A DNA stretch of 64,000 nt. Origin: a virus. Lineage: Duplodnaviria; Caudoviricetes. The position numbers and the translations under genes are program-made. Positions 1 through 64,000 of this stretch are shown here, piece by piece; positions within the stretch are counted from its first letter, which is position 1; each line of letters starts with the position of its first letter. Under the pieces are notes generated by a model. The model was given only the letters and a program-made list of their open reading frames with translations, was not told where the DNA came from and did no database searches. The stretch lies in IMG/VR virus record IMGVR_UViG_3300030117_007612, positions 64,001-128,000 of that record. One strand, written 5' to 3'.

Positions 1-3000
1 ACAGGTGCGCGCTTCAACTTAGATCCGTACGGAGATAAGACGGGCAAGCTTAGGAGAATCTTGCCTGAGCTTTTAAAATTTTATTGGTCCAAGGGTTGGG
101 TATTGAACGGTTCTTTACTCCCCGGCTTCGGCAAGAAAGACGCCGAAAAAATTGCAATTGGCTTTAATGAAAATTACACTATAAAATACATGTCTGTGTG
201 GCAATATGGATGTGAGCACGCAGCCTACACACTTAAAGAAGGACAACTATCTTCGCTTAAAAATAAGACTCCCTTTAATGATCCGACCGCCATGGCATAT
301 CTTTCTAAAGTTTTCGAAATGGAAAATGATTTAATTTCGAGAGTTCCCAAAGATTGGCTAGAGTTCCTAGAAGAATATACTTACCCAGCATTGCTTGTAA
401 GACATGCGAATCCGGGAGAATATGATCCATTTGCTCCCGGCGGCCCAATCCAACAGCAGACCATGGGCGCCATTAATGATGCGTTAGCTGGTGCCGGCGG
501 CAGTACTAACATGACCGCTGGTGACTGTATTGCTGATGATTTTGCGCAAGATTTTAAAGAAATAAAAGATTTTGTCCACGATCAGGTAATGGGCTTGGGC
601 GATGTGATTGCCTATAAATTTAGAGATAAAATATGCGGCACTGAAGATTCGGCAAGACAAGACGCTGAGGATGTTGGATGGTTTAGTGTTTATGATCCAA
701 AAACAAGAAAGAATAAAAATGTATACCTTATGGCCCAAGAACAGGCTTTTGCTCAATTGGAGGCCAATGATCAGGTCTTTGTTGAATTGTGCGCAAGGCT
801 TTTTAGTCTTCTTAATGTTAGTGGCGGCTATCAAAAGATGGACGAATTGTGGGCACAAGTATTCAGCCCGCTAAAGGAGTGCGGCCTATCAGAATTGCTA
901 TCTGACGTCATTAAGTGTCTTTTGGGCGGCTTAAGTTTAGAAGAGGCCATGGCCAAAGCAATCCTTTCTGCTTTAAACGCTATGGGCATTGAGTCCTTTG
1001 GAAAGCTTTTTGTAGGGTTGCCGCCTGATAAGCAGAGAGAAATTGAAGCGATTGTATGGAGAAGATTAGAAAGTGGAGACGTTCCCGGCTTTGAACCAGA
1101 GAGAATGCGAGCTACTCCTCCATGGGAATCTGATGTAGCAAAGGCCGGAGCTTCGCAAAGAGTGGCAACTGGGGTGGAAGATAGCCCAGTGCCGGTCGAT
1201 CGCGGCCCACCATACAGCGCGCCATCCACTAGGAGAACTCTCGGACAACAATTTGACACAGCTATAAACGACCCATATCAAGGAGTCGATCCAAACAACA
1301 TATTGCAGGTTTACATTGCTGCCTTGATAGATGTTTATGGCGACAATTTATTAGACTTGGTCGACGAGATAAACAAAATTCCGGGCGTCCCGGTTATCAC
1401 TGCCATCATCGCCACTTTGGATTGTCCTCGTCCTCCTATTTTTGATCCGGGCCTGTTCGACTGGCTTAAAGATATTCAGCTTCCATGGTGTAGAAACCAA
1501 AAAGATATTGGCTGGCCAAGAATAAATATGGCACCACCCATGTCGCTAGCTGATATTTTTAAGGCACTTCTAGAGGCCGCCAAGGAAGCGCTCTTGGAAA
1601 TGATTATGAACATCTTGACTCAAATAATCATTAAAATATGTGAGATACTTGGTGACATGATATGTAAGGCGCTAGAGGCTGTTGGTGCTTTGGCAGCTGC
1701 TTTACCGAGCTTAATCAGCGGCGAAAACTCCGTATCGAATGTACTGAGAGATGTTTTCTGTGGCCCAGACGCGTCACAAGAACAAATTGAGCAAGTTACG
1801 GCGCGATTAATAGGCACTCTTGGGGGTGGCGGCGCCGCAATGGCAGATCGTGGATTGGTAAACAACTGGACTGCCGGCGTATCTTCGATGATAACACAAA
1901 GAGAGCTAGCAGAATTGTTCACCGGCCGAGCCGATGATTCAACTATAAACATAATACATGAATTTACACAACTGGAGGTTCCAGAATTTGCTGACGCCTT
2001 AGCTTCACCCACTGACATTAGAAATCTTTTTAAGAATATTGGCGACTTATTCCCACCTGAATTTACAGGTGAGCTTTTGGACATTGTTGATGCCGATGAT
2101 TTACTTGCTGATAAGCCGATAAATCCGTCTTTATGTGCCACTCCGGAGAAGCTAGATGATTTTAAAGCCGCTCGTTGTGCGCTATTAGAAGGCCGAGCCA
2201 CCAAAGAACAGTGTGATAAACTTTATGATGACCTAAAAGATCAATTATTGGATGATCTAGAAGATATCAGCACAGTTTTCCAAAAAGGTGTGAAAGCGCA
2301 CATTGCAGATCAGTTGCCGCCACTTGTTAGCGCACCCGGCTGTCAAGATGGGCTGTTGCCTTTTGAGCCAGAAGAACATAGAGTTGCAAGAGAAAAAGTA
2401 CAAGAAAGCTTATACAAAGAAATCAAAGTTGCATACACACAAGATTTAGTCGGTGACGGACCTTGGGCATTTCAGTGGGGCGCCCTCAATCTAATACTTT
2501 CTGATGTTAATGGGGTAGCCTATACAGCCCACCAGAAAAAAGCACAAAACATGTTTAATTATGTTGACTTTATCAACGAATCCGGACCCGATCCCGGCGG
2601 ATTTCCCGAGATGCCGCCTTTGGTGGGTGAATTGATGGGCGGCCATAATGGCGCGTTCCCTGTTGATGTTGCCGGCTGGCTGCAAGATTACGTGACCTCT
2701 GGCAGCTATAGAGATCCGACAGTGCCAACTGGCATTTTTAAACCAATTGAGGGATGGCACGAATCTCAAAAAAGAAAAATAATCATAGAACCAAGCCCCA
2801 CAATCTATTCAATTTTTGGCGAAACCCAACAAGAGGTTGCATATGTGATGTTACCCGGATATAAGATGGGAGATTTAAGAGCTAAATTCAGAGACAACGC
2901 AAAAGGCATGCCAAATAAATTCAAGATCGCCGGCGTTACAGATTCAACAAAAGGTCTTGATGGAGAAAACGAGGCATATGGATATGGTTTTGACATGTGG

Positions 3001-5940: not shown

Positions 5941-5949
5941 AATTAGTGC

Positions 5950-5957
5950 CTAATTAC
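5950..5957 (+). promoter_or_regulatory. CTANTTA box (putative late promoter)
   Basis: CTAATTAC in the intergenic gap before the gp25-like gene. Confidence 0.4.
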
Positions 5958-5972
5958 AGTTAGGGTTTTATA

Positions 5973-6365: not shown

Positions 6366-6380
6366 TTAATTAATATGAAT

Positions 6381-6388
6381 CTAATTAT
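6381..6388 (+). promoter_or_regulatory. CTANTTA box (putative late promoter)
   Basis: CTAATTAT before the gp6-like gene. Confidence 0.45.
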
Positions 6389-6409
6389 ACTGAGAAAGGA
6401 ACATTATTA

Positions 6410-8212: not shown

Positions 8213-8213
8213 A

Positions 8214-9851
8214 ATGGCAATTAAAAGATATTTTGCATTAAATGATAATACAATTACAAATGCCTATATGTCAGATCTTAGCACTTTGGCTACTGGATCT
8301 AATATGGGCGCCGCCGATATTCTAGAGGTCTTCTCTATTTACGGGCAAACAATATCCGCTTCTGCCACATCATCAGCGGAATTGTCAAGAGTTTTGATCA
8401 AATTCGATGTAACTGGATCTGGATTTGATAGCATAAAGTCAGAACGTACGGCTGGAAGGATTCCAAGCAGCGGTAGTGTTAACTTTTACTTAAGACTATT
8501 CAATGCACAACACGCAAGAACCGTGCCAGTAGATTATACCCTTGATATCGCCCCGGTTCAACACCACTGGCAGGAGGGCTCAGGTCTGGATATGGATACA
8601 TATAAGGATCTTACGAAAGATAGGAATGGCTCAAATTGGATGAGCGCCTCAAATTCTCCAGACAGAGCGTGGACTACTCCGGGCGGCGACTATTTGGCTA
8701 CCTACAATTATAGTCAAGACTTCTCCACCGGGCTGGAACACTTGGAGGTTGATATAACTCCGCTAGTGGAAGGCTGGATTGCCGGCACATTGGCAAACTA
8801 TGGTGTTGGGATCAAGCTTAGCGCCAGCCATGAAGCTTATTATTCAAGTTCGGTTTGGGGCTTTAGTGGCGTAAAATATGTAGACGGTATTTTATTAAAC
8901 ACGACGGGCGCCCAGAAGTCCTACTATACTAAAAGATTTTTTGGCCGCAACTCTCAATACTTTTTTAAACGGCCGGCCATAGAGGCCCGATGGGATTCTT
9001 CCAGAAAAGATAATCGCGGAAGTTTTTATTATAGCAGCTCTCTTGCGCCATCAGAGCTTAACTTAAACACACTATTTTTATATAACAGAATTCGCGGCCG
9101 CTTAACAAATATTCCGGGAATTGGCACTGGTAATATATACGTAAGTATCTATTCTGGCTCAGCTTTAAATACCGAACCATCTGGATCAAGAATTAAACTC
9201 GCAGCAGACGGAACGCACGTTGGCTCAACATATCCCTATGTTGTGACAGGTAGCCATGTTTCTACTGGTATTTATTCTTGCAAATTTGCAATTACTGGAC
9301 ACTCTGGGCCCCGAAGCACCGTCGGAGCAGCATACGATCCGGGCACCGGCTCTCTCACAAAGCTGTTTGATGTTTGGCATGATAACGCAGGAACACAGTT
9401 CTTTACCGGCACCATTGTGCCCAAGAAGCTAGACGCACAAGATTATAACGATTCAGAGCGTTATGTTACAAAGGTGGTTAACCTGAAGTCAGAATATCGC
9501 TCAAATGAGAACGCAAGATTCAGAGTATTCGCAAGACAAAAGGGGTGGAGTCCTACAATTTATACAGTAGCCAGTAGAGCAACCGAGGCCCTCCCAATTG
9601 AAAGCGGATCATACAGAGTTGTTAGATTGATTGATAATTATGAAGTTTTCCCACATGCAACTGGTGCAAACGTTGTATCGCACTCAATGATGTCGTGTGA
9701 CACGTCTGGTAACTATTTTGATCTGGACATGTCTTTGCTTGAGCCGGGCTATGCGTACGGTTTAAAATTTGCGTACTATAATGAGCTATTGCAGGACTGG
9801 GTAGAGCAACCAGAAATATTTAAATTCATGGTAGATGAGTATGAGCGTTAA
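8214..9851 (+). CDS. Virion structural protein with DNRLRE-like domain
   Basis: SRVLIKFD, W..GSG, WTTPGGD and VDITPLVEGW...NYG resemble the DNRLRE-type beta-sandwich; located between gp6-like and gp7-like genes. Confidence 0.5.
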   Translation: MAIKRYFALNDNTITNAYMSDLSTLATGSNMGAADILEVFSIYGQTISASATSSAELSRVLIKFDVTGSGFDSIKSERTAGRIPSSGSVNFYLRLFNAQHARTVPVDYTLDIAPVQHHWQEGSGLDMDTYKDLTKDRNGSNWMSASNSPDRAWTTPGGDYLATYNYSQDFSTGLEHLEVDITPLVEGWIAGTLANYGVGIKLSASHEAYYSSSVWGFSGVKYVDGILLNTTGAQKSYYTKRFFGRNSQYFFKRPAIEARWDSSRKDNRGSFYYSSSLAPSELNLNTLFLYNRIRGRLTNIPGIGTGNIYVSIYSGSALNTEPSGSRIKLAADGTHVGSTYPYVVTGSHVSTGIYSCKFAITGHSGPRSTVGAAYDPGTGSLTKLFDVWHDNAGTQFFTGTIVPKKLDAQDYNDSERYVTKVVNLKSEYRSNENARFRVFARQKGWSPTIYTVASRATEALPIESGSYRVVRLIDNYEVFPHATGANVVSHSMMSCDTSGNYFDLDMSLLEPGYAYGLKFAYYNELLQDWVEQPEIFKFMVDEYER

Positions 9852-12800
9852 GGATTTATTTGAACACGGGACATCAATTGTAAGCTTAAAAAGTGGTTCG
9901 TTAACGGACTCATTCAAAGCTGTTGAGTCCTATAGTAACATTCAACAAATCATAGAAAAACAAAATAGGTTTATACCTCCGATTGATTTTTCTACGACAT
10001 CAAATTTTGCAAAGTTTGGATCTGCAGAGCTTTATTACGACACCGCTATAAAAAGAATATATGGAAACTATCCATATGATGGTACGGCACAAGAAAAGAA
10101 TAAGTTTGACAATCAATCACTTTATATAGATAAATATATATTTGACTACCTTTACCCAAGGAGTACTGGCTATGCCATATTCTCAGCAGAGGGCTGGGGA
10201 TCTCGTACTGGAATATCAACAGACGGTTATGCGACACCCACCACATTAGAATATGTTCAGTTTAGGGGTGGTCCACATACTTCATCTTACGGTATGGACG
10301 GATTGCGAACTTCGTTTTCTGGCTCGAATGTTTATGACGAAAATATTTACGACAATATTGGCCTGCCATCTAATTTTGGCAAAGGATCTCGCACATCCAA
10401 TCTAAAATTCACAGGCAGCGATGGTGCTACAGTTGAGTTTTGGCTGAAAAAGCCATCATTTGATACCACCACAACTACACGTAGGGAGGTTATTTTTGAC
10501 CTCTGGAACAGTCAAACGGCATCTGGCCATTCGGGATCAACTTGCTATGGACGCATGATGATCGAATTAGACGGGGAGTATTCGACCGGATCTTCGTTTT
10601 TGGTCACACTCATGTCCGGTACCAGCGGATTCCAGCATAGGCGAATTGGTAGCTTGGCCGGCACCTCGTCTCTAGCTGACTGGAACCATTATGCCTTCAC
10701 CTTCTTACAGAGCGGTAGCTATCTAAAAACTAAGTTTTATGTCAACGGAGGCTTAAACGAAGAAGTAGATAGTGAATTTGTGATCGGAGGGTTTGAGCAT
10801 GGACAGCTTCAGGCCCGAATAGGAGCCCTCTTGACAGCACCAACGGGTTCTGCTGCGCCGGCAGCGTCTGGAAAGCTTTCTGCTTCTCTTGATGATTTTA
10901 GATATTGGAAAGCTGCGAGAACTTCTAGAGAGATTTCCGAATTTTATTTTGTTCCTGTTCATGGAGGAACAAATACTGATGTTGCCAACGCCACTTTAGG
11001 CGTCTACTATAAATTTAATGAAGGAATTACGGGCACATCAAGCACCGACTCGATTGTTTTAGATTATTCCGGAAGGGTGTCAAACGGCTATTGGGTTGGA
11101 CTCAACACGTCAAGTCGACATACAGGCTCAGCAATAGTTCAAGCCAGCGCAAGTAATTCAGAATTTCTTGATCCGATTATTCACCCAAACCACACCGAGG
11201 TTAAGGTTCTTAGTGAAAATCTTTCCAAATCTGGCTCGCTTCATGATCATTTGAATAATGCAATGTTGTATAATACGATGCCGACATGGATTACTGATCA
11301 GGCAGATAGAGAAGGATCGGAAGACTTAAGATATCTTTGTCATATATTGGGGGCCTATTTTGATAAGATGTATCTGCAAATTGAAAGCCTATCTGCTTTT
11401 AACAATACTCAATATCTGAGCGCTTCGTATAAAGCATTCCCTTTTTATAAGAGTGCCCTAGAAGGCAAAGGGCTGGAAGCGCCTGAAATGTTTATTGAAT
11501 CAGATATTTTAGAAAAATTTGCCCAAAGGACAGACTCGTATAATTTAAATATCGATTTAACTGAGATTAAGAATCTTATATATCAAAACATCCATTCAAA
11601 CTTAATAAACATATACAAAGCCAAGGGCACCGAAAAGGCCATCAGAAATGTAATGAGATCCTTTGGTATTGGCGATGATTTGATTAAGATGAACTTATAC
11701 GCCAATAATGCAACGTTTGAGTTATCGGATAATATACATAATCAATTTATAAAGAAAAAATATGTTAACTTTTCCAAAAAAGGACAAAGTGGTGGCGTTG
11801 TTTATCAAACTGCAGAAGCAGGCAATACAGATAGTTTTGAATTTATTTCCGGAAGTAAAGGAAATCAATATGAAAAAACACTGGGATTCACCTTGGAAGC
11901 AAATGTTATGTTTCCAAAGTATCTTAGAGATCAAACAGATGATTTTTATGATAGAAATTGGCTAACATCGTCGTTATTTGGAATGCACCGCGCAGATCAC
12001 ACGGCCAGTAGCGATGTGACTACATGGTCACCGAGCGGAAGTGATTATGCAAACTTCCAGATTCAGTTTATTAGAGATTACCCGCGCTCTAGAAGCGGCT
12101 ACTTTAGAATTTCATCCTCTAATTCTCCATATCCAATTCCTGAAATGACATCGAGTATGTTCCATGAAGTGTATGATGATGACAATTGGTTGATATCATT
12201 CACCATGCAGCCAAAACGATATAGAGAATTATCTACTGTGTCAGGCGCTAGTCATCTAGATGTGCAAGGATATGATGCAATATTTGCCGGCTATCACAAG
12301 GTGCTGGGAACGACCATTGATTCTTTCTATCTAACACAGTCCATGGAAACAACTGCGTCCCGGGATTTCTTAAAATCAGACAAAAGAGTTTATGCTGGTG
12401 CATATAGAGACAACATGACAGGAACAATGTTGTATCAAAGTGATATAAAGTTGACAGAGATGAGATATTGGGCATACTCTCTTGAGCCCGAAGAAGTCGA
12501 AAGACATGCTGTTGACATTGAAAATGCCGGAATTTTAAATCCATTTAGAATCATTGGTAACTTGGATCCTAATTTCAAAAACATGGAAGTTAGGAGAAAT
12601 GACACGTTGGCCATGCACTGGAACTTTAACAGCGTAACAACATCAGATGCTAGTGGGGAGTTTATCGTACAAGACGCCTCATCTGGCTCTTCGAATAAAA
12701 GAGATAGGTTGGGAATATTTGGAAAATATAGCGGATATCAACACACGGGTAAGGGAAAATTCTTCATAACATCCAGCAAGGAAGCAATATCATATGAATT

Positions 12801-15800
12801 TGTGAACAATGCAAAATTCAGGCACTATGAGCAGATCGCAAGCTCTGATATGATTAATATCATGAACACAGACGATCATATATTTGGCGCTAACCAAAGA
12901 CCTACAGAGTATCACTTTACAATTGAAAAGAGCATGTACGATGTTATTTCACAAGAGATAATCAATATATTTGCCGGCATCGTCGATTTTAACAACTTAA
13001 TTGGAGAGCCCGTCAATCGATACAGAGATGAATACAAAGATTTAAGTAAATTACGTACAATTTTCTTTGACAAAGTTGGAACAACTCCTGATATAAACAG
13101 GTATTTAGATTTCTATAAGTGGTTTGATGATGCTTTGTCTTTGGTTATTAGACAGTTAGTGCCTGCAACTGCTGAGATCTCAGATGATTTATACAACGTT
13201 GTAGAAGAGCACGCGCTTGAAAGAAACAAATATAAAACACCATTTCCAACTATGGAATTCAAAGATCAAATTCCCGAGACCTTCATAAGAGGTATCGAAG
13301 AACTTGAGTATAGTTGGAAATTTGGGCACTCACCACTGCCCGGATCTAATAGGCCACAATATCAAAAAGGGTTGTATTGGAAATCAAGAGCCGAAAAAGG
13401 CAGCGGCCCATCAGCAACTGTTGCGGAGCTTAGTATTAGATCTGCATCTTTGGGCCCATTCATCACCTCTGCCGCCGGCTCTAAGTATACAAATTCATTT
13501 GCAATTGATATAGGTAGAGAAGAATTAAGAGATATAATCCACTCAAATCCACATTTTAGCCAAAGCCTGCCTACCTTATCTAAAGTTGATGGCACTACGT
13601 ATTCGGGCAACGCCCACGCCATAAGGACATTTGCAAAAACGTACAAGTTTAGAGTTTCTAGTCCAGTTGAATCAGTTTTTAAAGGCGGAGTAAACTTCTC
13701 GCCCGGCAAGAGTATGGAAAAAGCCTACAATGCCGTTGCTCCTCATGGGCCTATAGAGGCACATGGATCAATAGGGGGTGTTGGGTGCGAAAATTGTAAA
13801 CTACCGGTCAACATCCTGTTTGCAAGATCTGAAGACTTTGTGCCGTACAATGATTTGTATGATCCTCTTTCTCCGCATGCAAAAATTAAAATGAAGATGA
13901 AGGTTGCACACGGCCGTGATTCTAACAAAGAGATGTTAGGATATGCTACTGCAAAATCTGCCTTCTTCTTCCCGATGAATATTATAAGCGGTACAGTTAA
14001 CCCTGACATGTTGATAAATACTGATGGCGTCGAGGTCGACCGAAAGACCGGCCGTCGACACTTGGAGACGCCCAACAATGCGTATGAGAAGAGGATCTCA
14101 GGCAGCATAACCAACATTCATAACGATGTCTATGGGCCCCACATGGAGAAGCCGATGCAAGGGCCTTTCACCGAGCATTACGTAGGTGGCCACCAGTCAC
14201 GCCATGTTTCATTAAATACAGGTTCTTGGACCAGTGGGTATAGCCACCAATTAAATCGCCCAGAAGCTTGGAGAATCTACATTGGAAGATGTGGTACTCC
14301 GGGATCCATGCCTGACGGTGCAACTGCTGTTGGAATTGTGGGTCCGGACTATCCGCCCCCTGATTTGAAATTATCACTAACTGGCGACCATCAGGTGTCA
14401 GATGTTTATCCATACATAAAATTCCCTAGGGCAGAATATTATCGCGACGGAACTGCAAAGCGCCCAGTCAATATTGGGAACATCCATCATACTACCGGTT
14501 CGCCTACAATTTTAGGTAACTTTAACCATCGGTATGATTATGTACAAACAGCCGGAAGAGCTAGTCAGAAAAGATATCTCAAAGATACATTTGAGCACAA
14601 TTATGGAGATCGTCCGCCGGGAGTATTCGGCAGCAGCAGCATAGAAACAGTTCACCACCATACATCGTCACTCTTGCCACTTAGGTTCTTGCGAGAAAAC
14701 CCAAAATCAGGATATACTTCTGCACCAACTACAGCTAGTGCGCACTTCTTCGATGTAACGAATATCCACACGCTGATATCTGTAAGCACAGGTTCGAAGG
14801 ATCACAGCATTGGCCCGGGCGGATTCGGAAACGTATTCGGCGGCATGGAGCAATCAAGAGCTGGTGGCCCCATTGAGAATACTAGCAATCGGTATGCCGG
14901 CCAGACGTCCGATTACGACGGCACCATCTTTATAGTTCCCAAGCGCCGCCGCCGAGATGGCATCTTTACAACACGCTTCTCCGCCCCGGGCGGTCCTGAA
15001 ATTATGAGTCCCGGATATTTAGATATCCATACAGGAGAATTCTCGGTATACAACAGCCTTAACTTTAGAAACTACACTGTAAGATCAAGTGGCAGCGGCG
15101 AAACAATAGGTCAAGGAATAGTCTTTAGCGATAATGTTGCCGATAAAACAACAGGCTTTAAGTCAATTAGAATGCACAACCAGATGAATACTGGTTCTGA
15201 AGATGAGAGATTGCAGATTCGTCAAGGCTTGAGAACCTTACTTACTAGACACGCTGGCCATGGATATGCAGACTCTCAGTATGGTTACGTTCCGGAATCG
15301 AGATATATTGACGAGGATGATAAAGCCCCGGCCAGTTACCACAAGATTTATCGAAACCGACGCAAACATTTGCGAGAAAGAAACACAGACATAGAGTTTA
15401 TAGCAAACACTCACCGAGGTACGGAATATACCCATGGAGACGATCGTGGTGCACCCGGCGGCGGCAGAACCATAATTACGGCCTCGAATTACGACAATTA
15501 TTGGGTTCAACATGTTATTCCGCGATCAGATCTTAACTACTCGTGGATTACTGCTTCTATATTACATGATGTCGGATCCGGCCTCGATCATATCCTCCAT
15601 CCATCGGTAGATGATCATTATGGATATCTGCCGCATTACACAGTCGGCGAGTGGCAATGGCTAGGATACCATTATAGCGGCTTTCTTTCTTCATCAACAT
15701 ATGAAATCTTATCGTCAGATCCAAAGCCCGGCAAACACAACGCCGAGGGTCCATGGGGATCGGGCAGTGCATGGAAGATACCTTACAACTTTATAAGCGC

Positions 15801-18800
15801 TAGCGACTATGTGGTTTATCATGAAACCGGAAGTACGAATCCTTTAGTGCTCGGCGCCGACAAATCAACAATTCCAGCAAATACATTGAATCACATCCCA
15901 ATTGATTTTGTTGGTTTAAATACTGTCATTTACGAAAACATCACATCCAGCACGGCACAACTGGGTTTCCATCTCGATCATCTCACAAGTTCTGACGGCC
16001 GCGGCCCATCGGCCGCGTACCTAGGCCTTCCCCAACACCCGGCATATATTAATGATTCGATGATTGATATAGCCACGTTCTCCACGCCCCACGGCCGTTA
16101 TAATGCGAGGCCACTTCTAAACATGCTAACATTGCATCGTCAAGGTCCATATGGATGGCCATCTTGGAAACAAACTAGGGGTACATCTCACCCAATAATG
16201 CGCTATGAGCGAGAAAGAAACATATTAAGGGCACCATGGGATGCCATTGAAGCACATTTTGGACTTGATCCTCAAAACAGATATTATATTCAACCGGTCA
16301 CATCAAAGTACAAACCAATTCAAGCTGACATTGCACATCCCGGCGCCCCGGGCATCGAGCGCACTCCTGATGAATACTGGAAAAGAAGCAAAGAGCCATA
16401 CGCGAGATTCTACAGCACAAACTACAATCAAATAGTCGCATTACAATCGGACAGGAGGGATATGTTATTTTTCATGGCACCTCCTCGCTTTGTCCACAAT
16501 ACTTGGTGGGACTCGCTGGCATCCACCTTGGCCGAAGACTGGGCCTCCCGCAACCCAGCCACACGTCCACCGGGCCACCCGGCACAAGGCGCCTTCTTAT
16601 ATAAAACGTTTTATAGGGAGACTGTTTGGCCAAGCAGCTTAATGACATATATGTCAAGCTCTAGAGGTCGAGTTGGACCAGTGGGCGACGATGGCGTACA
16701 TTCGACGTACGAAGAGCGTAGATGGCGAAGTACTCATGCTGATAGAGTAACGCTTGGCGAAAGCTTGAATAATTACAAAGATAACAACATCCACGTGCCA
16801 TATCACAACAGGCGATACTCGTACACTTCAGGCAGCCGACTGACACAGAGCAGTTGGCCATTGGACGCTCAGCAGGACTTTTTGACTCGCCAAGGTGATG
16901 CGACTGGGTGGGGTACTACTGGTTCTACCTCACTTAGTGGTAGCACCATTGCCGGCGACCGTGGAGTTATTCGAGGAAGCCCGGGCACTGTCAACGGGCC
17001 TCCTCGCGTGATTTTCCAAAGGCATTTGGTTGCTGTTAGTGGTTCCGGAAACACGGGATCGTTTGGTGGTCCCGGCGCCGGCCCGGGCTTGACCGGATAC
17101 AACGAAGCCATGGGTATAAGCGCCACTGGCGTGCCACTAGGCCACTTGGACCACATGAATGGTTATGGGTTTATTAGTGGCGGATATCACAGGGGCGAGG
17201 GAGAGCTGCAGAATGGATACACAATGTTCCACGGTGGCCCAACCGCGCTGTCAGGCACTGCAGTTGCCGGCGGATATTGGTCCAACCACCTAGGATATCC
17301 CATGATATTACAAATATCGCCCACAGCTCTTTATGCTAGAAAACAAACGCTGTCATCTTATCGTTCAGTGGTTGGTCCGCATGGAATTGAAGTTCCAGAA
17401 ACAGCATCAAACAAATTAGTTGCAGATGCGTTCTCTTCCTCTGCCGGATGGACCGGCAGCATGCAACCAACTACAGGATCCCCATACGCATTGTACACCG
17501 GTAGTGTCGGTAGAACTTGTTGGGGTAACATTGATCTCTTTGGAGGGGAGGCAAAATGGCAGGCCCCAGAATTAGCAGGATATGTATCAAGAAGCTTTAC
17601 TGTTACCGATGAGGGTTACTTTGACCCGATCACAATGACAACCGTTGGATTTGAATTCTCTATAGATAAAACTTGGATAAGCGCATCGTCTGAGCCTTGG
17701 TATACTTCATATGAAGATTACATTTTAGATGGGAGAGCGGTTGCCAAAGAATACTCAATTGTGCCAGAATATAACTCTTCTAGATGGATTCCCGCATCCG
17801 CTTCTGAAGCTGTGCCGGCTCCCTTTATTAGACCATTTTATGGAGGTCAGCCATATTACAACTTTATAGAAATCAATCTTGGTCATACTAGCTCGTGGAG
17901 TGAGGCAATTAAACGACATGATGAGGAAGTAGTGTTCAAGGTTTCACGTGGAGATAATCTTAAAGATTTACTTGGGGTACAAGAGAGCCTTAACAGTACC
18001 AACTGGGGAGAAGCCGCTTGGTCTTGGCCGTCCAGATTGAAATTAAAACTTGACGCTTTTGTAAAGTTTATACCATATGAAGGTTTCTACCCCGCACAAA
18101 GAACCTTGCAATTAGCTGATCAATTTTGGAAATCTCACGGCCAACAAGTTCAAGTCCATCCGGGCCGCGGCTTTCCACCGGGCCCGGGCTTTCCCGGTTC
18201 TGTTCCAGAAACGTTTGCAATGGGAGGTGCTGGATATGCAAACAGACTTACTTTTGGCACTGGTGACCCAACCATATCCCCATTTGGGGCGACTTGCAAC
18301 CCAATAGGGGGTCAAATTATACGCCATCCTTACGTCGTCGATTTCAATGGCGGCATTTCACCTTCATATAAGGATTTGTCAAGCGCGTGGCAGGCTCATT
18401 TTACTCCCTCCGGCCGCAGCATTCAATCAGGGTCACAAGGCTGGACCTATCACACGGGCTCAGAATCAATGCTACAAGGCAAGCAACTAGCTCGCCCTCT
18501 TGCCCAGACGCTATTTGCGCCCGGGATTTTATACAACTCAATCAAATCAGGGCTTGCTGTTGATTATCCAATATGTGTGTCAGAGTCTTTCGAAAGGGTT
18601 TGTGTCGCATCACACGAATATGCAGGCACATTTAACCCCACTGACACTACTACAGTTGGCGGTTTTCCTCGCCATGGCGCCGATGGAGACAAGATAGGCA
18701 TAGTGCCAACAGATTATTGGGTTATTTCGGGATCCAGAAAGGCCAACACCGACCCAACACACGGCAGATTCGACTACAGAGTACCATTTGAAGCTATAAT

Positions 18801-37835: not shown

Positions 37836-38774
37836 ATGCATACCAAAGACGCAATAAATACCCTAAGTGCGGTGTTGGGCACTTGTAGAAAACTAAGCAA
37901 TGATGAGTATTATTTCAAATGCCCTGCATGCGATCATCGAAAGCATAAGCTCGCTATTAATTTGGATAAAAATGCTTTTCATTGTTGGATTTGTGATTAT
38001 CGCGGCCGTAATATTCGCCGGCTTGTTAGGCGTTTTGGTACGTTTGCACAATTACAAGCATGGGACAGATTATCAGGCCAAGTTGATCTTACAGTATTTG
38101 ATTCTTTGTTCGATTCGAGCGTCACTGAGCCGGAAGAAATATTACAACTACCGGTAGAATTCAAAAGCTTAGCAAACAATAGGGCGCCCGCCACTGGCAT
38201 TGCTGCCTTATCGTATTTAAAGAACAGAGACATCACTAAAGAAGATATACTTAAATGGAAAATAGGGTACTGCTTTTCAGGCGAATATGAAAACAGAATT
38301 ATAATTCCTTCTTTTAATAAAGATGGAGATTTGAATTATTTTATTGCGAGAAATTATTCCAATGATTATAAAAAATATAAAAATCCCAAAGCCTCTAAGA
38401 ATATCATTTTTAACGAGCTATATATTGACTGGAATACTGACCTTGTTTTAGTTGAAGGAGTTTTTGATGCTATTCGGGCCGGAAACGCTGCTCCTATATT
38501 GGGTTCAACCCTACGGGCAGAATCAAAATTATTACGAAAGATTGTACAAAACGACACCCCAATCTATGTCGCCTTGGATCCCGACGCTGCCGCAAAAGAG
38601 CGTAAAATTATTCAAATGCTCTTGCGATATGATATCGAGGTTTATAAAGTCGATGTATCTGGCTACGAAGACGTAGGTTCCATGCCAAAAGGTGTTTTTG
38701 AAGAAAGAAAAAGCAACGCCAATTTAATAGATAGAGACGATTATTTGCTATTGGATTTGCTGTCCGCAGTATAA
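37836..38774 (+). CDS. DNA primase (Zn-binding domain + TOPRIM)
   Basis: CPACDH...CWIC zinc finger; RIIIP; VEGVFDA and LDPD TOPRIM acidic motifs. Confidence 0.9.
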   Translation: MHTKDAINTLSAVLGTCRKLSNDEYYFKCPACDHRKHKLAINLDKNAFHCWICDYRGRNIRRLVRRFGTFAQLQAWDRLSGQVDLTVFDSLFDSSVTEPEEILQLPVEFKSLANNRAPATGIAALSYLKNRDITKEDILKWKIGYCFSGEYENRIIIPSFNKDGDLNYFIARNYSNDYKKYKNPKASKNIIFNELYIDWNTDLVLVEGVFDAIRAGNAAPILGSTLRAESKLLRKIVQNDTPIYVALDPDAAAKERKIIQMLLRYDIEVYKVDVSGYEDVGSMPKGVFEERKSNANLIDRDDYLLLDLLSAV

Positions 38775-41800: not shown

Positions 41801-41977
41801 GAACCCGGCACAGCATTAGATGAAGAAAATATGGAAGGTTTTATTCGTATTTTGGAACTAATTAAAGTGTATTTCAAGAACGTCTTGTTGATCTCGCACC
41901 TTGACTCTCTCAAGGACTGTGTTGATATGCAAATTGTGATTGAAAAGAAATCAGGATATGCAAAAGTAAATCAATAG
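38828..41977 (+). CDS. Fused SbcD/Mre11 nuclease - SbcC/Rad50 ATPase (T4 gp47+gp46 equivalent)
   Basis: Phosphoesterase motifs DTH, GD, GNHD, HG, GDIH, YAGS; Walker A GKNYSGKS; coiled coil with CGSDYPQC; signature ASGAEK; Walker B FILDEP; H-loop ISH. Confidence 0.93.
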   Translation: MKFAHISDTHIKNLKYHYEYRVVFEQLYEKLREEKVDYIIHCGDVAHTKTQISPEYVEMCSLFFENLANIAPTYAILGNHDGNLKNSSRQDALTPIFNALNHPNLFLLKDSGETILDDKFCLNVLSVFDRDNWIKPSDSDKINIALYHGSISNCKTDINWTMTNGEDEIGIFDGFDFAMLGDIHRRQFLDEAGRVWYAGSTVQQNHGETNDKGILIWNIESKDDWDIDPVVFKNPKPFVTLELTQKGRMPKGADVPEGARLRLVSNNNLPLSVMKRAIDIAKHRFKPESVTFLNRAAGERGDVSEITDTLKTENLRDINIQEELMDEYLKEYQVDSSTMEKIYELNRKYKKLVENSDDISRNVNWRLTNFEFDNLFNYGEGNNVSFEDLNGITGIFGKNYSGKSSIIDAVLWTLFNTTSKNERKNLNVINQNKEFCRGKLTIDVGHLRYTVERTAEKYIKRLKGEETLEAKTDLNFEVHDQATGETVSLNGLSRNNTDANIRRHFGECEDFLISSMASQHGALSFIDEGSTRRKEIIAKFLDLEIFEKKFKLAKEDSTDLKGALRRLESRNYDEEIVEASATLEEKRVELKRHETQCEILKTKIDDITETCESLKNSIEAIPEEVINVIDTKREIKKRNMQIASLELEGAENKNILISKKATSEKIIEYLAKIDIDALNRQNSIITNLSTQRQEQENILNDLLSQIEQIEKKSKLLDGIPCGSDYPQCKFIRDANVAVANLPHVQQERENSQTQFKILDKKLSSMRPKTVEEQLEKYNLVLQKQNTVTHEIADLNLSIEKGQASIERLTYELKEFEQKKQKYEENKEVIENFEEFSSELATCHANLEKAEKQYNKCENQKLELYKEIGSSEERVQSIKEQKQEYLSLREEYSAYDLYMRCMHTSGIAYDIIKRKLPVINQEIAKVLANIVDFEIFFEDSGKKFDIFIKHPRHEPRPIEMASGAEKTMGAMAIRLALLSVSSLPKSDLFILDEPGTALDEENMEGFIRILELIKVYFKNVLLISHLDSLKDCVDMQIVIEKKSGYAKVNQ

Positions 41978-45438: not shown

Positions 45439-45685
45439 TAAGTTACAACTTAGGCAGATTGTCAAAGAAGAACTTAGGGCCGTTTTGAACGAAGGGCATT
45501 ATCATGACATGGGCGGCGAAGACGAAATGTACGATGCTTTGGATCCACATGGCATTGCAAAGATGTCAGATGCACAATTAGTAGATGCTGCCTACCGTGA
45601 TGGAATTGAAGAAATTCTAGTTTTAGACAACGAAGGCGATCTTGTAAATCGTGAAGAAGTCATAATGGCACTGAAAAATGTATGA
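45410..45685 (+). CDS. IIxEE-leader family protein
   Basis: ISKLQLRQIVKEELRAVLNE near the N-terminus; stop overlaps the terminase start. Confidence 0.65.
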   Translation: MRQKNSKTISKLQLRQIVKEELRAVLNEGHYHDMGGEDEMYDALDPHGIAKMSDAQLVDAAYRDGIEEILVLDNEGDLVNREEVIMALKNV

Positions 45686-47265
45686 GCTTTCAATTAACCA
45701 AAAAAGATATGATGAAAGAGATCCTAAAGTGCGGCAAGGATCCGACATACTTTCTTAATACATATGCAAGAATTTCACACCCCCTGCACGGCACTATACC
45801 TTTCAGAACATACGATTTTCAACAAGAATTACTAGACGATTTTAATGATTATCGTTTTAATGTGATATTAAAAGCCCGCCAGTTAGGTATTTCGACCATA
45901 ACTGCGGGCTATGTTGTTTGGCTGATGTTGTTTCATCGCGATAAAAACGTTTTGGTTATGGCAACCAAGTTTGGTACCGCCGCAAACCTCGTTAAAAAAG
46001 TCAAAAGCATAATGAAAAACCTGCCTGACTTTATAAAAATTGCAGAAATTTCTGTTGACAACCGTACATCATTCGAATTATCAAATGGATCTTTTATTAA
46101 AGCTTCCTCAACTTCTGGTGATGCTGGTCGTTCTGAATCACTCTCCCTGCTTGTGCTTGATGAGGCTGCTCACATTGAGGGACTAGAAGAGTTGTGGACC
46201 GGTCTATATCCCACGCTGTCAACGGGTGGTAGGTGTATTGCACTATCAACCCCAAATGGTGTTGGAAATTGGTTTCACAAAACATACATGGAAGCTGACT
46301 CTGGGGCAAACAATTTTCACCCCACGAACTTACCATGGGATGTGCATCCAGATCGCGATCAGCAATGGTTTGAAAAAGAGACAGCAAATATGTCTAGACG
46401 ACAAATTGCTCAAGAGCTAGAGTGTAATTTTAATACTTCTGGCGAAACTGTAATTGATCCGGAAGATTTGGAAAAGCTAGCAAAAAACGTGAGAGAGCCA
46501 AAATACAAAACAGCATTTGATAGAAATTTTTGGATTTGGGAAGAGCACGATCCATCGTGCAATTATCTCATGGTTGCTGATGTTGCAAGAGGCGATGGGA
46601 CCGACTATTCTGTATTTCACATTATCAAGCTTGAAACTTTAGAGATCATAGGGGAATACCAAGGGAAACCCACACCAGACTTATTTGGCAATATGATTAA
46701 TCAAATAGGTAGAGAGTTTGGAGATTGTTTGGTTGTTGTTGAAAACAACAGTATCGGATACGCTGTATTGGAAAAATTGGTTGAGTTTGGATATCCGAAT
46801 GTTTACTATTCAGTTAAGTCAACACATGAATATATCGATCAATATCAAGCCGAAAGCCAAACAAATGCGGTGATGGGCTTTTCAACTACTTCAAAGACGC
46901 GTCCTTTAATAGTTGCCAAACTTGAAGAATTCATAAGAAATGAACTAATTACTGTGAATTCTGGTCGTTTAATAAACGAAATGAGGACTTTTATTTGGCA
47001 GTACGGAAAACCACAGGCCATGAGAGGGTACAACGATGACTTGGTTATGTCGTTGGCAATTGCATGTTGGATTAGGGACACCGCACTCCAAGTTAACCAA
47101 AGAAGCATGGATTATCAAAGGGCTTTTTTAAGCTCTATAGTCTACACAAAAACGAGTTTTGATACTACAATTAAGGGAATGGACAAAAACAAAAGCACAA
47201 AAATGACCGATAGAATAGCTGAACAAAAAGAAAGCTATGATCATTTAATGTGGCTAATAAAGTGA
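45682..47265 (+). CDS. terL: Terminase large subunit (T4 gp17-like)
   Basis: KARQLGIST Walker A, LLVLDEAAHI Walker B, STPNG motif III, nuclease VADVARG...DYS and NDDLVMSLAIA. Confidence 0.97.
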   Translation: MSFQLTKKDMMKEILKCGKDPTYFLNTYARISHPLHGTIPFRTYDFQQELLDDFNDYRFNVILKARQLGISTITAGYVVWLMLFHRDKNVLVMATKFGTAANLVKKVKSIMKNLPDFIKIAEISVDNRTSFELSNGSFIKASSTSGDAGRSESLSLLVLDEAAHIEGLEELWTGLYPTLSTGGRCIALSTPNGVGNWFHKTYMEADSGANNFHPTNLPWDVHPDRDQQWFEKETANMSRRQIAQELECNFNTSGETVIDPEDLEKLAKNVREPKYKTAFDRNFWIWEEHDPSCNYLMVADVARGDGTDYSVFHIIKLETLEIIGEYQGKPTPDLFGNMINQIGREFGDCLVVVENNSIGYAVLEKLVEFGYPNVYYSVKSTHEYIDQYQAESQTNAVMGFSTTSKTRPLIVAKLEEFIRNELITVNSGRLINEMRTFIWQYGKPQAMRGYNDDLVMSLAIACWIRDTALQVNQRSMDYQRAFLSSIVYTKTSFDTTIKGMDKNKSTKMTDRIAEQKESYDHLMWLIK

Positions 47266-47274: not shown

Positions 47275-49236
47275 ATGGCAATTAATCCTAAAAATCCAAG
47301 AAATCCGCAATCTCAATTATTCAAGAGTTTGACAAGATTGTTTTCCGGACCAATCATTAACTATCGTAGTCAGACCGGTCGAAAGATCAGAAGACAACAC
47401 TTGGATAAATATTCGTCAAGGTTCCGTTCAGCCAGTGGGCAACAGTTTAAACGGAGTACCTACAATCCACTAGACGTCGTTGCTGTTAATGCAATTGCAA
47501 ATCAAAGAAGAAGCGAAAGATATATTGACTTCGATCAAATGGAATACATGCCAGAGATTGCCTCGTCCTTAGACATATACGCAGATGAGATGACAACACA
47601 TTCAAGTCTCCAGCCAATGTTAAAAATACACTGCACCAACGAAGAAATCAAAGCAGTGCTTGATGTTCTGTATCACAACATAATGAACATTAATTACAAT
47701 TTATTTGGATGGTGCCGAACGATGTCTAAATACGGCGACTTCTTTTTGTATTTAGATATCGACGAAAAATATGGAGTTAAGTCAACCATAGCCCTGCCCT
47801 CTCAGGAGGTCGAAAGGCTTGAGGGATTAGACGCAACAAACCCAAATTATATTCAATATCAGTGGAATAATGCCGGAATGACGTTTGAGAATTGGCAGAT
47901 ATCTCACTTTAGAATCTTAGGAAACGATAAGTATGCGCCATACGGTACATCAATTTTAGAGCCGGCCCGAAGGATTTGGCGCCAACTTACTTTAATGGAA
48001 GACGCAATGATGGCATATCGTGTCATTCGCTCACCAGAGAGAAGGGTCTTCAAGATCGATGTTGGTTCAATTCCACCACAAGATGTCGAACAGTATATGC
48101 AAAAAATTGTAACACAGATGAAGCGCCACCAAGTTGTTGATCCTGACACCGGGCGCGTTGACCTTAGATATAATCCATTAAGTATTGAGGAGGATTACTT
48201 TATTCCTGTTCGTGCAAATTCCTCATCTGATATAACAACGCTCCCGGGCGGCTCGAACGCAACAGAGATTGACGATATTAAATATTTAAGAGATAAGCTG
48301 TTTTCTGCATTAAAGGTGCCACAATCTTATTTGTCACGCGGCGAAGGCGCCGATGAAGACAAAACGACATTAGCACAAAAAGATATCAGATTCGCAAGAA
48401 CCATTCAAAGATTACAGCGCGTTGTAGTATCTGAGTTAGAAAAGATTGGAATCATTCACTTATACACATTAGGTTTTAGAGGAGACGATCTTCTCAGTTT
48501 CAAGTTGGCATTAAACAATCCATCAAAAATCGCAGAACTGCAGGAACTTGAACACTGGAGATCTAAATTTGATACGGCCGCTGCAGCAAATGAGGGTTAT
48601 TTTTCGAGACGATGGGTTGCTGAAAAACTATTCAATATGTCCGAAGAAGAATTCCTTCGCAATCAAAGAGAGTTGTTTTATGATCGCAAGCAGGATTCTG
48701 CGTTGCAAGCGATTGCCGAAGCAGGCGCCCTCGGCGCCGAAGGCGGCGGATTGGGTGGCGATTTGGGTGGTGACCTAGGAGGCCTCGAAGCCGCCGAGGG
48801 ACCCGAAGCAGATCTAGAAACCGCACCGCCCCCCGCCGATGAGGTACCCCCGGGTGACGAATCAATGCTTCTCACTTCCCCAGAGGGCCCACCCCCGGGC
48901 CATAGAGATTCGCCTACAATTTATAAATCACCAGACGGCCATGGCACCAGCAAATATCATAGAGTAAAAGTCGACCAACGTCGTCTTGGGGCTTTAAGAA
49001 GAAACATGGCTAGGGCTGCCTCTCCGGAGGTAAATACCTATAGAAAGAACAATCTAGGCGCGCCAGAATTAAGAACCCATGCTCGCGGAAGTATTTACGA
49101 GCAACAAGGCCCTATTTATAATGACAATGAAAATCGTCTGTTCGAAATCAATCACGAAGTTAGGGGCTTAATTAAGTCGCTTGAAGAAAAAGAAAACATA
49201 GTGGAGTTAAAAAAGGATGAAACCAAAGCACAATAA
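47275..49236 (+). CDS. Portal vertex protein (T4 gp20-like)
   Basis: ARRIWRQLTLMEDAMMAYRVIRSPERRVFKIDVG, EDYFIPVR, DDIKYLRDKLFSALKVPQS; directly after terL. Confidence 0.96.
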   Translation: MAINPKNPRNPQSQLFKSLTRLFSGPIINYRSQTGRKIRRQHLDKYSSRFRSASGQQFKRSTYNPLDVVAVNAIANQRRSERYIDFDQMEYMPEIASSLDIYADEMTTHSSLQPMLKIHCTNEEIKAVLDVLYHNIMNINYNLFGWCRTMSKYGDFFLYLDIDEKYGVKSTIALPSQEVERLEGLDATNPNYIQYQWNNAGMTFENWQISHFRILGNDKYAPYGTSILEPARRIWRQLTLMEDAMMAYRVIRSPERRVFKIDVGSIPPQDVEQYMQKIVTQMKRHQVVDPDTGRVDLRYNPLSIEEDYFIPVRANSSSDITTLPGGSNATEIDDIKYLRDKLFSALKVPQSYLSRGEGADEDKTTLAQKDIRFARTIQRLQRVVVSELEKIGIIHLYTLGFRGDDLLSFKLALNNPSKIAELQELEHWRSKFDTAAAANEGYFSRRWVAEKLFNMSEEEFLRNQRELFYDRKQDSALQAIAEAGALGAEGGGLGGDLGGDLGGLEAAEGPEADLETAPPPADEVPPGDESMLLTSPEGPPPGHRDSPTIYKSPDGHGTSKYHRVKVDQRRLGALRRNMARAASPEVNTYRKNNLGAPELRTHARGSIYEQQGPIYNDNENRLFEINHEVRGLIKSLEEKENIVELKKDETKAQ

Positions 49237-51024: not shown

Positions 51025-51038
51025 GAAGGGCAATAACA

Positions 51039-52976: not shown

Positions 52977-52992
52977 AGGATATAAGTAGGCG

Positions 52993-53217
52993 ATGCCATA
53001 CACATCATCAGGCAAGTGCGTTTATAAAAAAAACAAAGATGGCTCTCGTGGTAAAAAAGTGGGATGTACAAAGGGTCCCGTAAAGCAGTACCTTAAGGCT
53101 TTGTATGCTAATACCGATGAGGGCTTGGATAAAACTGTAACAGAAGAAACAATGAGACTAATTATTAGAGAAGAATTACAAGAATATCTAAAGGAGATTA
53201 CAAATGACAATGGATGA
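52993..53217 (+). CDS. Small basic protein with C-terminal IIREE helix
   Basis: MPYTSSGKCVYKK...GC...; C-terminal TEETMRLIIREELQEYLKE. Confidence 0.65.
   Translation: MPYTSSGKCVYKKNKDGSRGKKVGCTKGPVKQYLKALYANTDEGLDKTVTEETMRLIIREELQEYLKEITNDNG
53158..53165 (+). promoter_or_regulatory. CTANTTA box (putative late promoter) upstream of the tubulin gene
   Basis: CTAATTAT embedded in the upstream ORF, starting 46 nt before ATG 53204. Confidence 0.35.
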
Positions 53218-54253
53218 TTTTGATTTTATAGATCACTATGGCGAAGCCGAAGAGGTAGCCAACGAAGATCAGCTACCAGATAACGAAGTTGGCTCATCGC
53301 TAAACTGTGCTATTATTGGCGTTGGTGGAGGGGGCGGCAAAATGGCAAAAGCCTTTTTAGATATCGGCTACAATAAAACATTGTTGATTAATACTACTCC
53401 AAAAGATATCCCAAGCGACGTCGATGAATCACATGTAGTGCTGATTCCGGATGCTGATGGGATCGGAAAAGATGTCAGCTTGGGTAAATCCGTACTTGAC
53501 GCCAATAGCGCCGTTGTTGAAGATGCCTTGCGGACAAAACTTGGCAAGGTTGATTGGCTTATCGTATTATCAGGCGGTGGCGGAGGTACTGGTAGTGCCA
53601 CTGCTTCATTGCATTCTGTTTTCGAAAGATACTTAAAATCTGTTCAGGCCGATGGTGACATACTTTATGTCGCATCGTGGCCAACAGCACAAGAGTGCTT
53701 GAATCCCACAATTAGCAAAAATGCACTGTCACTTATTAATGACGTATCAAAGCACTCGCACATTGTGATCGACAATGAAAGGCAGGTTAAGTTACTCAGA
53801 GGCAAGGTTGGCATGCTTGGAATGTTTCCGTTTGCCAATACGGCGTTTGCCAAGCTTTTAACGCAGGTGCTCAGATTGTCTGCAGAACAGTCACCAATCC
53901 AGTCTTTTGATTCAAAAGATCTTGCTAGGTGCTTAAGCACAGATGGTAGAATGTTTATTGGGTCTACGATGATTGCTGACCCGGCCAGTCCCAACCTTGG
54001 ATCGATGATTTTACAAAATTGCCTGAAGCGCTCTCCCTGCCCGCAGCCCTCTGGGCGCCCAAAAACAGGCACACTACTATTGGTGGTGAGCCCTGAGATG
54101 GCGTCTGATCCAGAGATCAGCAAGCACCTAGATAATGCAATTTCGTACGTCGGAGGAAGAACAGAGACACTTTTTTCCGGAGTCTATGTTAAAGAGAACG
54201 TACCGGGCTTGGTTGCTATCTTGTGCATGAATGGTTTACCCAAAGGAAATTAG
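53204..54253 (+). CDS. Tubulin/FtsZ-family GTPase (PhuZ/TubZ/CetZ-like)
   Basis: GVGGGGGK, INTT, GIGKD, signature SGGGGGTGS, IVIDNE, FPFANT and T7-loop-like SFDSKDL. Confidence 0.92.
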   Translation: MTMDDFDFIDHYGEAEEVANEDQLPDNEVGSSLNCAIIGVGGGGGKMAKAFLDIGYNKTLLINTTPKDIPSDVDESHVVLIPDADGIGKDVSLGKSVLDANSAVVEDALRTKLGKVDWLIVLSGGGGGTGSATASLHSVFERYLKSVQADGDILYVASWPTAQECLNPTISKNALSLINDVSKHSHIVIDNERQVKLLRGKVGMLGMFPFANTAFAKLLTQVLRLSAEQSPIQSFDSKDLARCLSTDGRMFIGSTMIADPASPNLGSMILQNCLKRSPCPQPSGRPKTGTLLLVVSPEMASDPEISKHLDNAISYVGGRTETLFSGVYVKENVPGLVAILCMNGLPKGN

Positions 54254-54267
54254 CGGGAGATGTTAAA

Positions 54268-55113: not shown

Positions 55114-55115
55114 CT

Positions 55116-56361: not shown

Positions 56362-56372
56362 TTTTATTTTAA

Positions 56373-56380
56373 CTATTTAT
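56373..56380 (+). promoter_or_regulatory. CTANTTA box (putative late promoter)
   Basis: CTATTTAT before 56414. Confidence 0.5.
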
Positions 56381-56413
56381 GTTTAAGTATCAGTATGTGG
56401 AGTATGTGAGTAG

Positions 56414-63054: not shown

Positions 63055-63119
63055 TAATTGCTAAACAAATGCTCATCCCCATGCGTCGAATTAAAAACGT
63101 CTTTTATGTCAATTAGTTA

Positions 63120-63127
63120 CTATTTAT
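63120..63127 (+). promoter_or_regulatory. CTANTTA box (putative late promoter)
   Basis: CTATTTAT before the scaffold gene. Confidence 0.5.
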
Positions 63128-63161
63128 TTTTGAAATATAATTAAATTTTGGAGAATTTTAT

Positions 63162-64000
63162 ATGTCATCGATGCTCGACCAAGCAATTATAGACGCCACT
63201 GCCCTAAAAGAGGCGGCTCTTAAAAACGCAGAAAACGCAATTGTTGAAAAATATTCCAGCGAGGTTAAGCAAACGCTTGACAAACTGCTTGAACAAGACG
63301 CACCTCTTGCAATGGATCCTTTGGGAATGGATGCGGGCCCGGAGCCCATGGACGATCCTGCACCAGACACTCCGCTTGCTGCACTTGATGGAGACAAAGC
63401 ATGTCCATGCCCCGATGAAGATGAACAAATTGAATTGGATATTGATCTTTCGGCGCTTTCCAAGGCTGCAGCAGACCTAACAACATCCGACATGGGATCT
63501 GCAGAGGACCAAGAAGCCGTTTTACAACAAGTTGCCGAGTCCGAAGATTTTGAAATTTCAGACGATGTTATCGTCGAATTATTATCCGAGGATGAGTCCG
63601 AAGAACAAGAGATTGATGATTCAGAAGTTATTGAAGAAGAAGAGGAAGAATTGCTCGATGAAGATGAGGAATTAGAATACTCTTTTGAAGATGAATTAGT
63701 AGATAAGATTTATGAAAAATTGACGGTTGATTTAAAACCGGCATTATCTGGCTGGGCTGGACGCCCGGCTGAGCACATTGAAGCTGAAATGGAAAGAGAG
63801 TTAGCACGCCGACGCGACGATGAAGTCGAAGAAGACGTAAAGGCTCTCAAAAAGGCTGTAGAAGAATTGATGGAAGAGAACAACTCTCTTAAAGATCAAA
63901 ATGAAAAGTTTTCATCCGCAGTGGTTGCGCTGAAAGATAAACTCGACGAAGTTAATCTTTCAAATGCAAGATTGCTGTATACGAACCGAATACTCAGTAG
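63162..64000 (+). CDS. Prohead scaffold/core protein (T4 gp22-like), 3'-truncated
   Basis: MSSMLDQAIIDATALKEAALKNAENAIVEKYSSEVK..., very acidic middle and coiled coil ending LDEVNLSNARLLYTNRILS; GGAG SD; open to the window end, so not in the track. Confidence 0.75.
   Translation, partial: MSSMLDQAIIDATALKEAALKNAENAIVEKYSSEVKQTLDKLLEQDAPLAMDPLGMDAGPEPMDDPAPDTPLAALDGDKACPCPDEDEQIELDIDLSALSKAAADLTTSDMGSAEDQEAVLQQVAESEDFEISDDVIVELLSEDESEEQEIDDSEVIEEEEEELLDEDEELEYSFEDELVDKIYEKLTVDLKPALSGWAGRPAEHIEAEMERELARRRDDEVEEDVKALKKAVEELMEENNSLKDQNEKFSSAVVALKDKLDEVNLSNARLLYTNRILS

Follow-up and report, generated by a model that had tools for sequence, protein, structure and literature searches.

The window and its genes

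The 64-kb window considered here, by which we mean the whole stretch of DNA that was analysed, comprises bases 64,001–128,000 (G000:C1:64001-128000) of a 203,368-bp IMG/VR virus record, and the subject of this report is the absence from it of the pentanucleotide CCWGG (CCAGG or CCTGG). The record, which is rated 100% complete by CheckV, has a G+C content of 42.2% and carries ~90% of its genes on one strand. Judged from its structural and replication genes, which are T4-like, the phage (hereafter G0) is a T4-like myovirus. All sequencing runs that contain it are marine metagenomes, and they come from several studies. A search of the genome for a tyrosine integrase (PF00589) found none, other integrase classes not having been searched.

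The genes recognised in the window encode a baseplate wedge, a primase, an SbcCD-like fusion, the large terminase, the portal and a prohead protease. The DnaG-type primase gene (37836..38774, + strand), whose nearest cultured relatives are in the phages immuto and Mel-JY01, precedes a single open reading frame (ORF) of 1,049 amino acids (aa) that has an SbcD-like nuclease at its N-terminus fused with an SbcC-like ATPase (38828-41977, + strand), so that the T4 gp47 and gp46 equivalents share one gene. The large terminase gene (45682..47265, + strand) is closest among cultured phages to those of Flavobacterium phage immuto (46.6% identity) and Microcystis phage Mel-JY01 (43.5%). The gp20-like portal gene (47275..49236, + strand) was used as the marker for collecting relatives and for the tree described below, and a gp23-type major capsid gene lies directly beyond the window end.

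CCWGG is missing from the window and nearly missing from the genome

A preliminary description of the window had claimed that it lacks CCWGG altogether where several tens of sites would be expected. We searched both strands exactly and compared the counts with three nulls: a dinucleotide shuffle, a maximal-order Markov model and a synonymous-codon shuffle. CCWGG occurs 0 times on either strand of the window, against 40–73 sites expected across these nulls. Dinucleotide shuffles gave 79 strand matches, equivalent to ~40 sites, and every shuffle stayed well above zero. The Markov expectation was 54 sites (z = -9.0), which makes CCWGG the most under-represented of the 4–6-base words and places the exact count nowhere near expectation. 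Synonymous shuffling of the 40 genes wholly contained in the window predicted 73.3 +/- 6.3 sites, the lowest of 200 shuffles giving 60; the highest expectation for any gene of the window, ~26 sites by this null, fell on a 3,902-aa ORF (9835..21543, + strand), which has none. Both the claimed absence and the claimed expectation are therefore borne out, as is the statement that comparable words are common in the window, where we counted 76 CCCGG, 63 CCGGG, 272 GATC, 22 GGACC, 20 GGTCC and 20 GAATTC.

Across the whole 203-kb genome CCWGG occurs once, compared with 182 sites expected from the Markov model (z = -16.6) or 245.5 +/- 12.4 from the synonymous shuffle. The sole site, with its flanks CCCCAGGT, lies outside the window, 969 bases after its end (genome position 128,969), and forms a CCA-GGT Pro-Gly pair of the major capsid gene. 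When the genome was divided into 20-kb bins, each was expected to hold 17–47 sites, and none was present except that single capsid site. Intergenic DNA contains 0 sites, and 54 sites were expected but 0 found in the 88 accessory genes, defined as lacking homologues in two complete relatives.

Codon choice and word specificity

The preliminary description had also reported that Pro-Gly is always written CCC-GGN or CCG-GGN. This holds in the window, with 34 CCC-GGN, 43 CCG-GGN and 0 CCA or CCT, and genome-wide in 207 of 208 Pro-Gly pairs; elsewhere, CCA and CCT make up 61% of Pro codons. Codon-context tables covering all three frames showed the same avoidance in the other registers: NCC codons (Ala, Pro, Ser, Thr) occur 0 times ahead of TGG or AGG, and CAG or CTG flanked by a preceding C and a following G occurs 0 times. 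The purge of CCWGG thus acts on DNA and not on protein, reaching every frame, intergenic DNA and accessory genes through synonymous choice only.

The loss is specific to a small number of words. CCSGG is raised genome-wide (321 vs 185 expected) while CCWGG is gone, which indicates that the responsible agent tells a central W from S, as would an agent of the EcoRII/MvaI/BstNI type and not one reading CCNGG. Neither CCSGG nor CCGG, GATC or GGCC is depleted in the genome. The only other zero words are two palindromes, GAGCTC (0 genome-wide vs 16 expected, or 29 by shuffle) and CTCGAG (0 vs 12, or 24 by shuffle), and both are likewise at 0 in the window. All three missing words are palindromes or pseudopalindromes, and they are the sites of EcoRII/MvaI/BstNI (CCWGG), SacI (GAGCTC) and XhoI (CTCGAG).

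Other words are over-represented. By synonymous shuffle, the palindromes GCCGGC (179 vs 53) and GGCGCC (119 vs 47) are strongly so, and CCTAGG, GCTAGC and G/C runs in general are likewise in excess, a feature of the window and the whole genome. Relatives show this trend in weaker form (1.2–1.3 fold, Markov).

Selection between closely related strains

A ~98% identical strain, G6, spans 100,381 bases of the G0 genome and differs from it by 1,799 single-nucleotide polymorphisms (SNPs). With the expectation stratified by synonymous or non-synonymous effect and by transition or transversion, 15.5 SNPs would be expected to create CCWGG, and one does (Poisson P ~3e-6). This deficit indicates that selection against the word is still ongoing.

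The lone site-creating SNP is the capsid site itself, where G6 has CCG-GGT for the CCA-GGT of G0. The site is present in contigs from two runs, each of a different study, and is thus a real polymorphism. EcoRII-type enzymes require two sites for cleavage, and on that basis a solitary site could be tolerated. We also considered the capsid site as a conserved signal and rejected this idea, since the site is polymorphic between G0 and G6, and other site-free relatives with a single site have it at a different place.

Avoided words vary among relatives

Using the portal protein, we gathered more than 596 IMG/VR relatives (64–81% identical) and scored CCWGG in the surrounding loci (84 loci). Site-free loci (n = 17) had a pooled count of 6 observed for 417 expected, partly depleted loci (n = 14) 70 for 204, and normal loci (n = 35) 398 for 437. 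The portal tree has three clades, with the site-free state found mainly in two of them, and requires at least five changes between the free and normal states. Sister lineages differ sharply, with observed/expected counts of 0/23 vs 14/27, 0/9 vs 7/18 and 0/19 vs 7/19. The sites that remain in partly depleted relatives are flanked by a mixture of bases.

The larger relatives cover the same range. CCWGG is absent from G3, a complete 204-kb genome with terminal repeats (0 observed/215 expected), and from the 102 kb of G6 (0/90), and is close to absent from G4 (146 kb, 5/124) and G7 (82 kb, 5/80); the complete 196-kb genome G1 (155/203) and the 136-kb G2 (88/102) keep their sites. A C5-methylase (PF00145) was absent from all five relatives tested, and lineages with normal CCWGG counts are therefore not protected by one.

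A screen of all 4–6-base words in seven large genomes showed that the near-zero words differ from genome to genome, a few entries with an expectation of ~9–12 being possible chance events. True palindromes account for 12 of the 19 flagged words, to which CCWGG is to be added, although palindromes make up 3% of the words tested. Every flagged palindrome is a classical type II site; among them are CGATCG, CCGCGG, GACGTC, TTCGAA, GTCGAC and CAGCTG. Additional words (observed/expected) were CGATCG 0/37, CCGCGG 0/23, CGCGCG 0/20, GACGTC 0/19, CACGTG 0/18 and CGTACG 0/12 in G3; TTCGAA 0/20, CAGCTG 0/15, GTCGAC 0/14 and CAGCTC 1/23 in G4; GACGCC 0/20, GCACGC 0/21 and CAGCTC 0/14 in G2; and CGTCTC 3/26 in G1. 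Such combinatorial, lineage-specific sets of type II words are the pattern expected from varying host restriction repertoires.

GAGCTC behaves differently from the other words. It is absent from nearly the whole family. In 1.13 Mb, where 102 occurrences were expected, we counted 3, which share a single contig; ten records totalling 681 kb, some of which overlap the 1.13-Mb set, have 0. CTCGAG is absent from most relatives and normal in G2 (17/19), G9 and G15. In G2 and G4, GAGCTC, CAGCTG and CAGCTC/GAGCTG are all absent or almost so, a pattern that avoidance of a degenerate word SAGCTS would produce; in G0, by contrast, GAGCTC alone is lost among the SAGCTS words.

Search for protective and self-targeting genes

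Profile searches of the genome gave no match to a C5-methylase (PF00145), an N4/N6-methylase (PF01555), TGT/DpdA (PF01702), QueC (PF06508) or the thymidylate-synthase family, which includes pyrimidine hydroxymethylases (PF00303). A 255-aa ORF (G000 179315-180082; L001:1327-2094) has a sub-threshold match to D12-class N6-adenine methylases (17 bits, with a cut-off of 22); should this putative gene encode a genuine methylase, the lack of GATC avoidance could be due to it.

Nuclease models were equally without a match in the genome at E <= 0.1. The negatives for MvaI/BcnI (PF15515) and EcoRII-C (PF09019) are weak and carry little weight, since neither model matched any control genome (0/14 each); the same threshold returned nothing for the SacI (PF09566) and XhoI (PF04555) nucleases. 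We also looked for genes of G0 that follow the site-free state. Only three ORFs, of 78–112 aa, are found in both site-free relatives, G3 and G4, while G1 and G2, with normal counts, lack them. A 291-aa protein (G000 163886-164761) was rejected as a co-varying nuclease because it is a core gene, present in CCWGG-normal genomes too; it has no Pfam, PHROG or PDB match. A 211-aa protein, which matches an endolysin-related PHROG, was also rejected.

Two further ORFs deserve mention. A 396-aa ORF (G000 152484-153674; L114:4484-5674) contains only the C-terminal part of a family A DNA polymerase domain and could be a split or swapped polymerase. By blastp against called ORFs it matched relative G3 only; a tblastn re-check no longer lists its absence from G1 and G2, and the blastp outcome may stem from faulty gene calling. 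Within the window, a 349-aa ORF (53204-54253, + strand) matches the Tubulin/FtsZ GTPase family (PF00091, E 9e-8, with a score at the curated cut-off) and, weakly, the PhuZ PHROG, and is a possible phage tubulin adjoining the head genes.

Probable host restriction and the alternatives

What we observed directly is the depletion and the codon-level mechanism behind it, together with its specificity, its changes from relative to relative and the fact that it is still being maintained. The best explanation of these findings is a CCWGG-specific restriction enzyme of the host that counter-selects sites, a reading in which host and enzyme are what we infer and to which we assign a probability of about 0.78. 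The preliminary description had offered this cause together with erosion of methylated sites; selection by a host CCWGG system fits all of the evidence, whereas erosion, discussed below, found no support.

If so, G0 would be a virulent T4-like marine myovirus with unmodified or only lightly modified DNA, and its hosts would carry a type II enzyme cutting CCWGG, with EcoRII/MvaI/BstNI specificity, in addition to SacI-like (GAGCTC) and XhoI-like (CTCGAG) activities. Genome copies bearing a site would be cut on entry; mutations creating sites would be removed and mutations destroying them fixed. Because such selection works on DNA, proteins would be kept and only synonymous codons altered: CCW-GGN would give way to CCS-GGN at Pro-Gly, NCC-TGG/AGG would become NCA/G/T-TGG/AGG, and NNC-CAG-G or NNC-CTG-G would be replaced using CAA or other Leu codons. 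Rusinov et al. 2018 (PMC6286503) report site avoidance as a typical trait of non-temperate double-stranded DNA phages, with orthodox type II sites as its typical targets.

Several points weigh against this explanation. The routes tried for host assignment, described below, led neither to a host nor to a cognate CCWGG restriction-modification system. Pfam covers restriction enzymes poorly, so that a nuclease carried by the phage, or a DNA modification that profiles do not recognise, may be present. The family-wide loss of GAGCTC contrasts with the lineage-by-lineage variation of the other words and may reflect a factor intrinsic to the phage. Moreover, a scan of 400 sampled species of one class, uninformative as to the host, turned up SacI-family genes in just 3. 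Either a shared host enzyme or a conserved phage factor could explain the GAGCTC pattern.

Among the alternatives, we regard it as quite unlikely that CCWGG is read by a non-classical host defence, such as a modification-dependent system or a sequence-guided nuclease not yet known. The data show that the word is lethal or costly, not which class of enzyme reads it, and to that extent they would suit such a system; yet in the survey of PMC6286503 hardly any sites other than orthodox type II ones are avoided, and the great majority of the words that this family shuns together with CCWGG are classical type II palindromes.

It is likewise quite unlikely that the phage is instead protecting itself from its own weapon, that is, that it encodes a CCWGG nuclease without a methylase, directed against host or competitor DNA, and is safe from it by being site-free. 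Avoidance of GAGCTC throughout the family would be easier to obtain through a conserved phage factor than through an enzyme common to all hosts, and for that word a self-encoded nuclease is somewhat more attractive than otherwise. The gene searches speak against it: the four nuclease models found nothing, two of them being the weak negatives noted above, the ORFs that track the site-free state are three and tiny, and the only plausible candidate, the 291-aa protein, is encoded by a core gene that normal genomes have as well. An extended form, in which a conserved, unrecognised phage nuclease lies behind the near-universal absence of GAGCTC and the less general one of CTCGAG, and CCWGG represents a second weapon gained in some clades, seems to us simply unlikely.

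Mutational erosion would hold that Dcm-methylated CCWGG has been worn away by deamination of 5-methylcytosine, with no selection on the word, and we consider the chance of this very remote. CCWGG is the Dcm target, and CCTAGG, which contains both deamination products, is over-represented (25 vs 9.4). Against this, a C5-methylase was detected neither in the phage nor in the five relatives, and ahead of Trp the NCT codons are not enriched over NCA and NCG. When 52 CCWGG sites of site-bearing relatives were aligned to site-free relatives, the differences fell on all five positions, with central W>S changes making up 29 of 75, and deamination-type changes (position-2 C>T and position-4 G>A) only 6 of 75, counts that are not fully independent because some pairs come from the same lineage. 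Mutation bias, furthermore, cannot take 246 expected sites to 1, and it leaves the zero counts of GAGCTC and CTCGAG unexplained. On the small share of deamination-type changes, the lack of an NCT excess and the missing methylase, we reject erosion.

An artefact of composition, codon pairing or assembly, for which we found no supporting evidence, can be neglected: all three frames and both strands are affected, nulls preserving dinucleotides, tetranucleotides or proteins and codon usage predict tens to hundreds of sites, the independent assemblies G6 and G3 are likewise site-free, and relatives of similar G+C carry normal CCWGG counts.

Clues to the host

The preliminary description had presented the missing word as a clue for host prediction, which is valid in principle but yielded no host for this phage. 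No near-identical record was found among cultured phages, and the best cultured relatives are only 35–47% identical in primase and terminase. Contigs of the family occur in public metagenome-assembled genomes (PAAD01000063.1, PBOB01000007.1, PBLX01000051.1 and PBHR01000019.1; L082-L085), in bins labelled Flavobacteriaceae, Acidiferrobacteraceae, Legionellales and Methanobacteriota. Since these labels represent four unrelated lineages, binning gives no host, and the contigs are most likely mis-binned phage DNA; GAGCTC and CTCGAG are not missing from the bins that hold them. The closest NeuB homologues were all on short metagenomic contigs.

Translation signals are more informative. GGAG or GAGG occurs at positions -20 to -4 of 48% of G0 genes, compared with 7% at a control position inside genes. 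The corresponding figures upstream of starts are 42–47% in five relatives (G1-G4 and G7) and 2% in immuto (L086). Bacteroidota largely do without Shine-Dalgarno initiation. Together, the frequency of the motif and this background argue against Bacteroidota as hosts of the family and suggest that the G0 host probably belongs to a lineage using Shine-Dalgarno initiation and is not a flavobacterium, despite the nearest cultured relative.

Comparison with known systems

Restriction-site avoidance is itself well known and a textbook phenomenon, of which G0 is an ordinary but very clean example. Coliphages T7 and T3 have few EcoRII (CCWGG) sites, and Staphylococcus phage K is without GATC. Our literature search on CCWGG avoidance in phages gave only general restriction-modification papers. 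Like the site-avoiding non-temperate double-stranded DNA phages of PMC6286503, G0 has lost a short palindromic type II word near-completely, specifically and at the DNA level; no cognate methylase was detected in it. It differs from the classical cases in that the purge could be traced to codon contexts and strain SNPs. CCWGG is, moreover, one of three zeroed words in the 203-kb genome, and the uncultured marine family to which G0 belongs switches the trait on and off, each lineage having its own avoided set.

The most instructive comparison is with Flavobacterium phage immuto, a related T4-like myovirus with a similar terminase-portal-capsid gene order, whose primase is 38% identical to that of G0. 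In immuto all G is replaced by fdPreQ1 via DpdA3, and the DNA resists restriction enzymes (PMC10516641). The phage shows no avoidance in 50 kb (observed/expected 40/57 for CCWGG and 4/6 for GAGCTC), consistent with full replacement of its G. Thus immuto meets host restriction chemically and keeps its sites, whereas G0, without matches to TGT/DpdA and QueC, loses them.

The other cultured relative, the distant Microcystis phage Mel-JY01 (L087, bases 1-50000), shows a purge far more extreme than that of G0, with 0 GATC against 106 expected, 0 GCCGGC against 7, and 198 CCSGG.

For the abundant, uncultured family of ~200-kb marine phages to which it belongs, G0 provides a clean quantitative case of site loss that is complete, codon-silent and maintained at the level of strain SNPs. 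A single phage group that includes both full guanine replacement, in its cultured relative, and loss of sites offers a natural comparison of anti-restriction strategies. Once host methylomes or restriction-modification repertoires exist, the lineage-specific sets of zeroed type II words could serve as fingerprints for matching these phages to their hosts.

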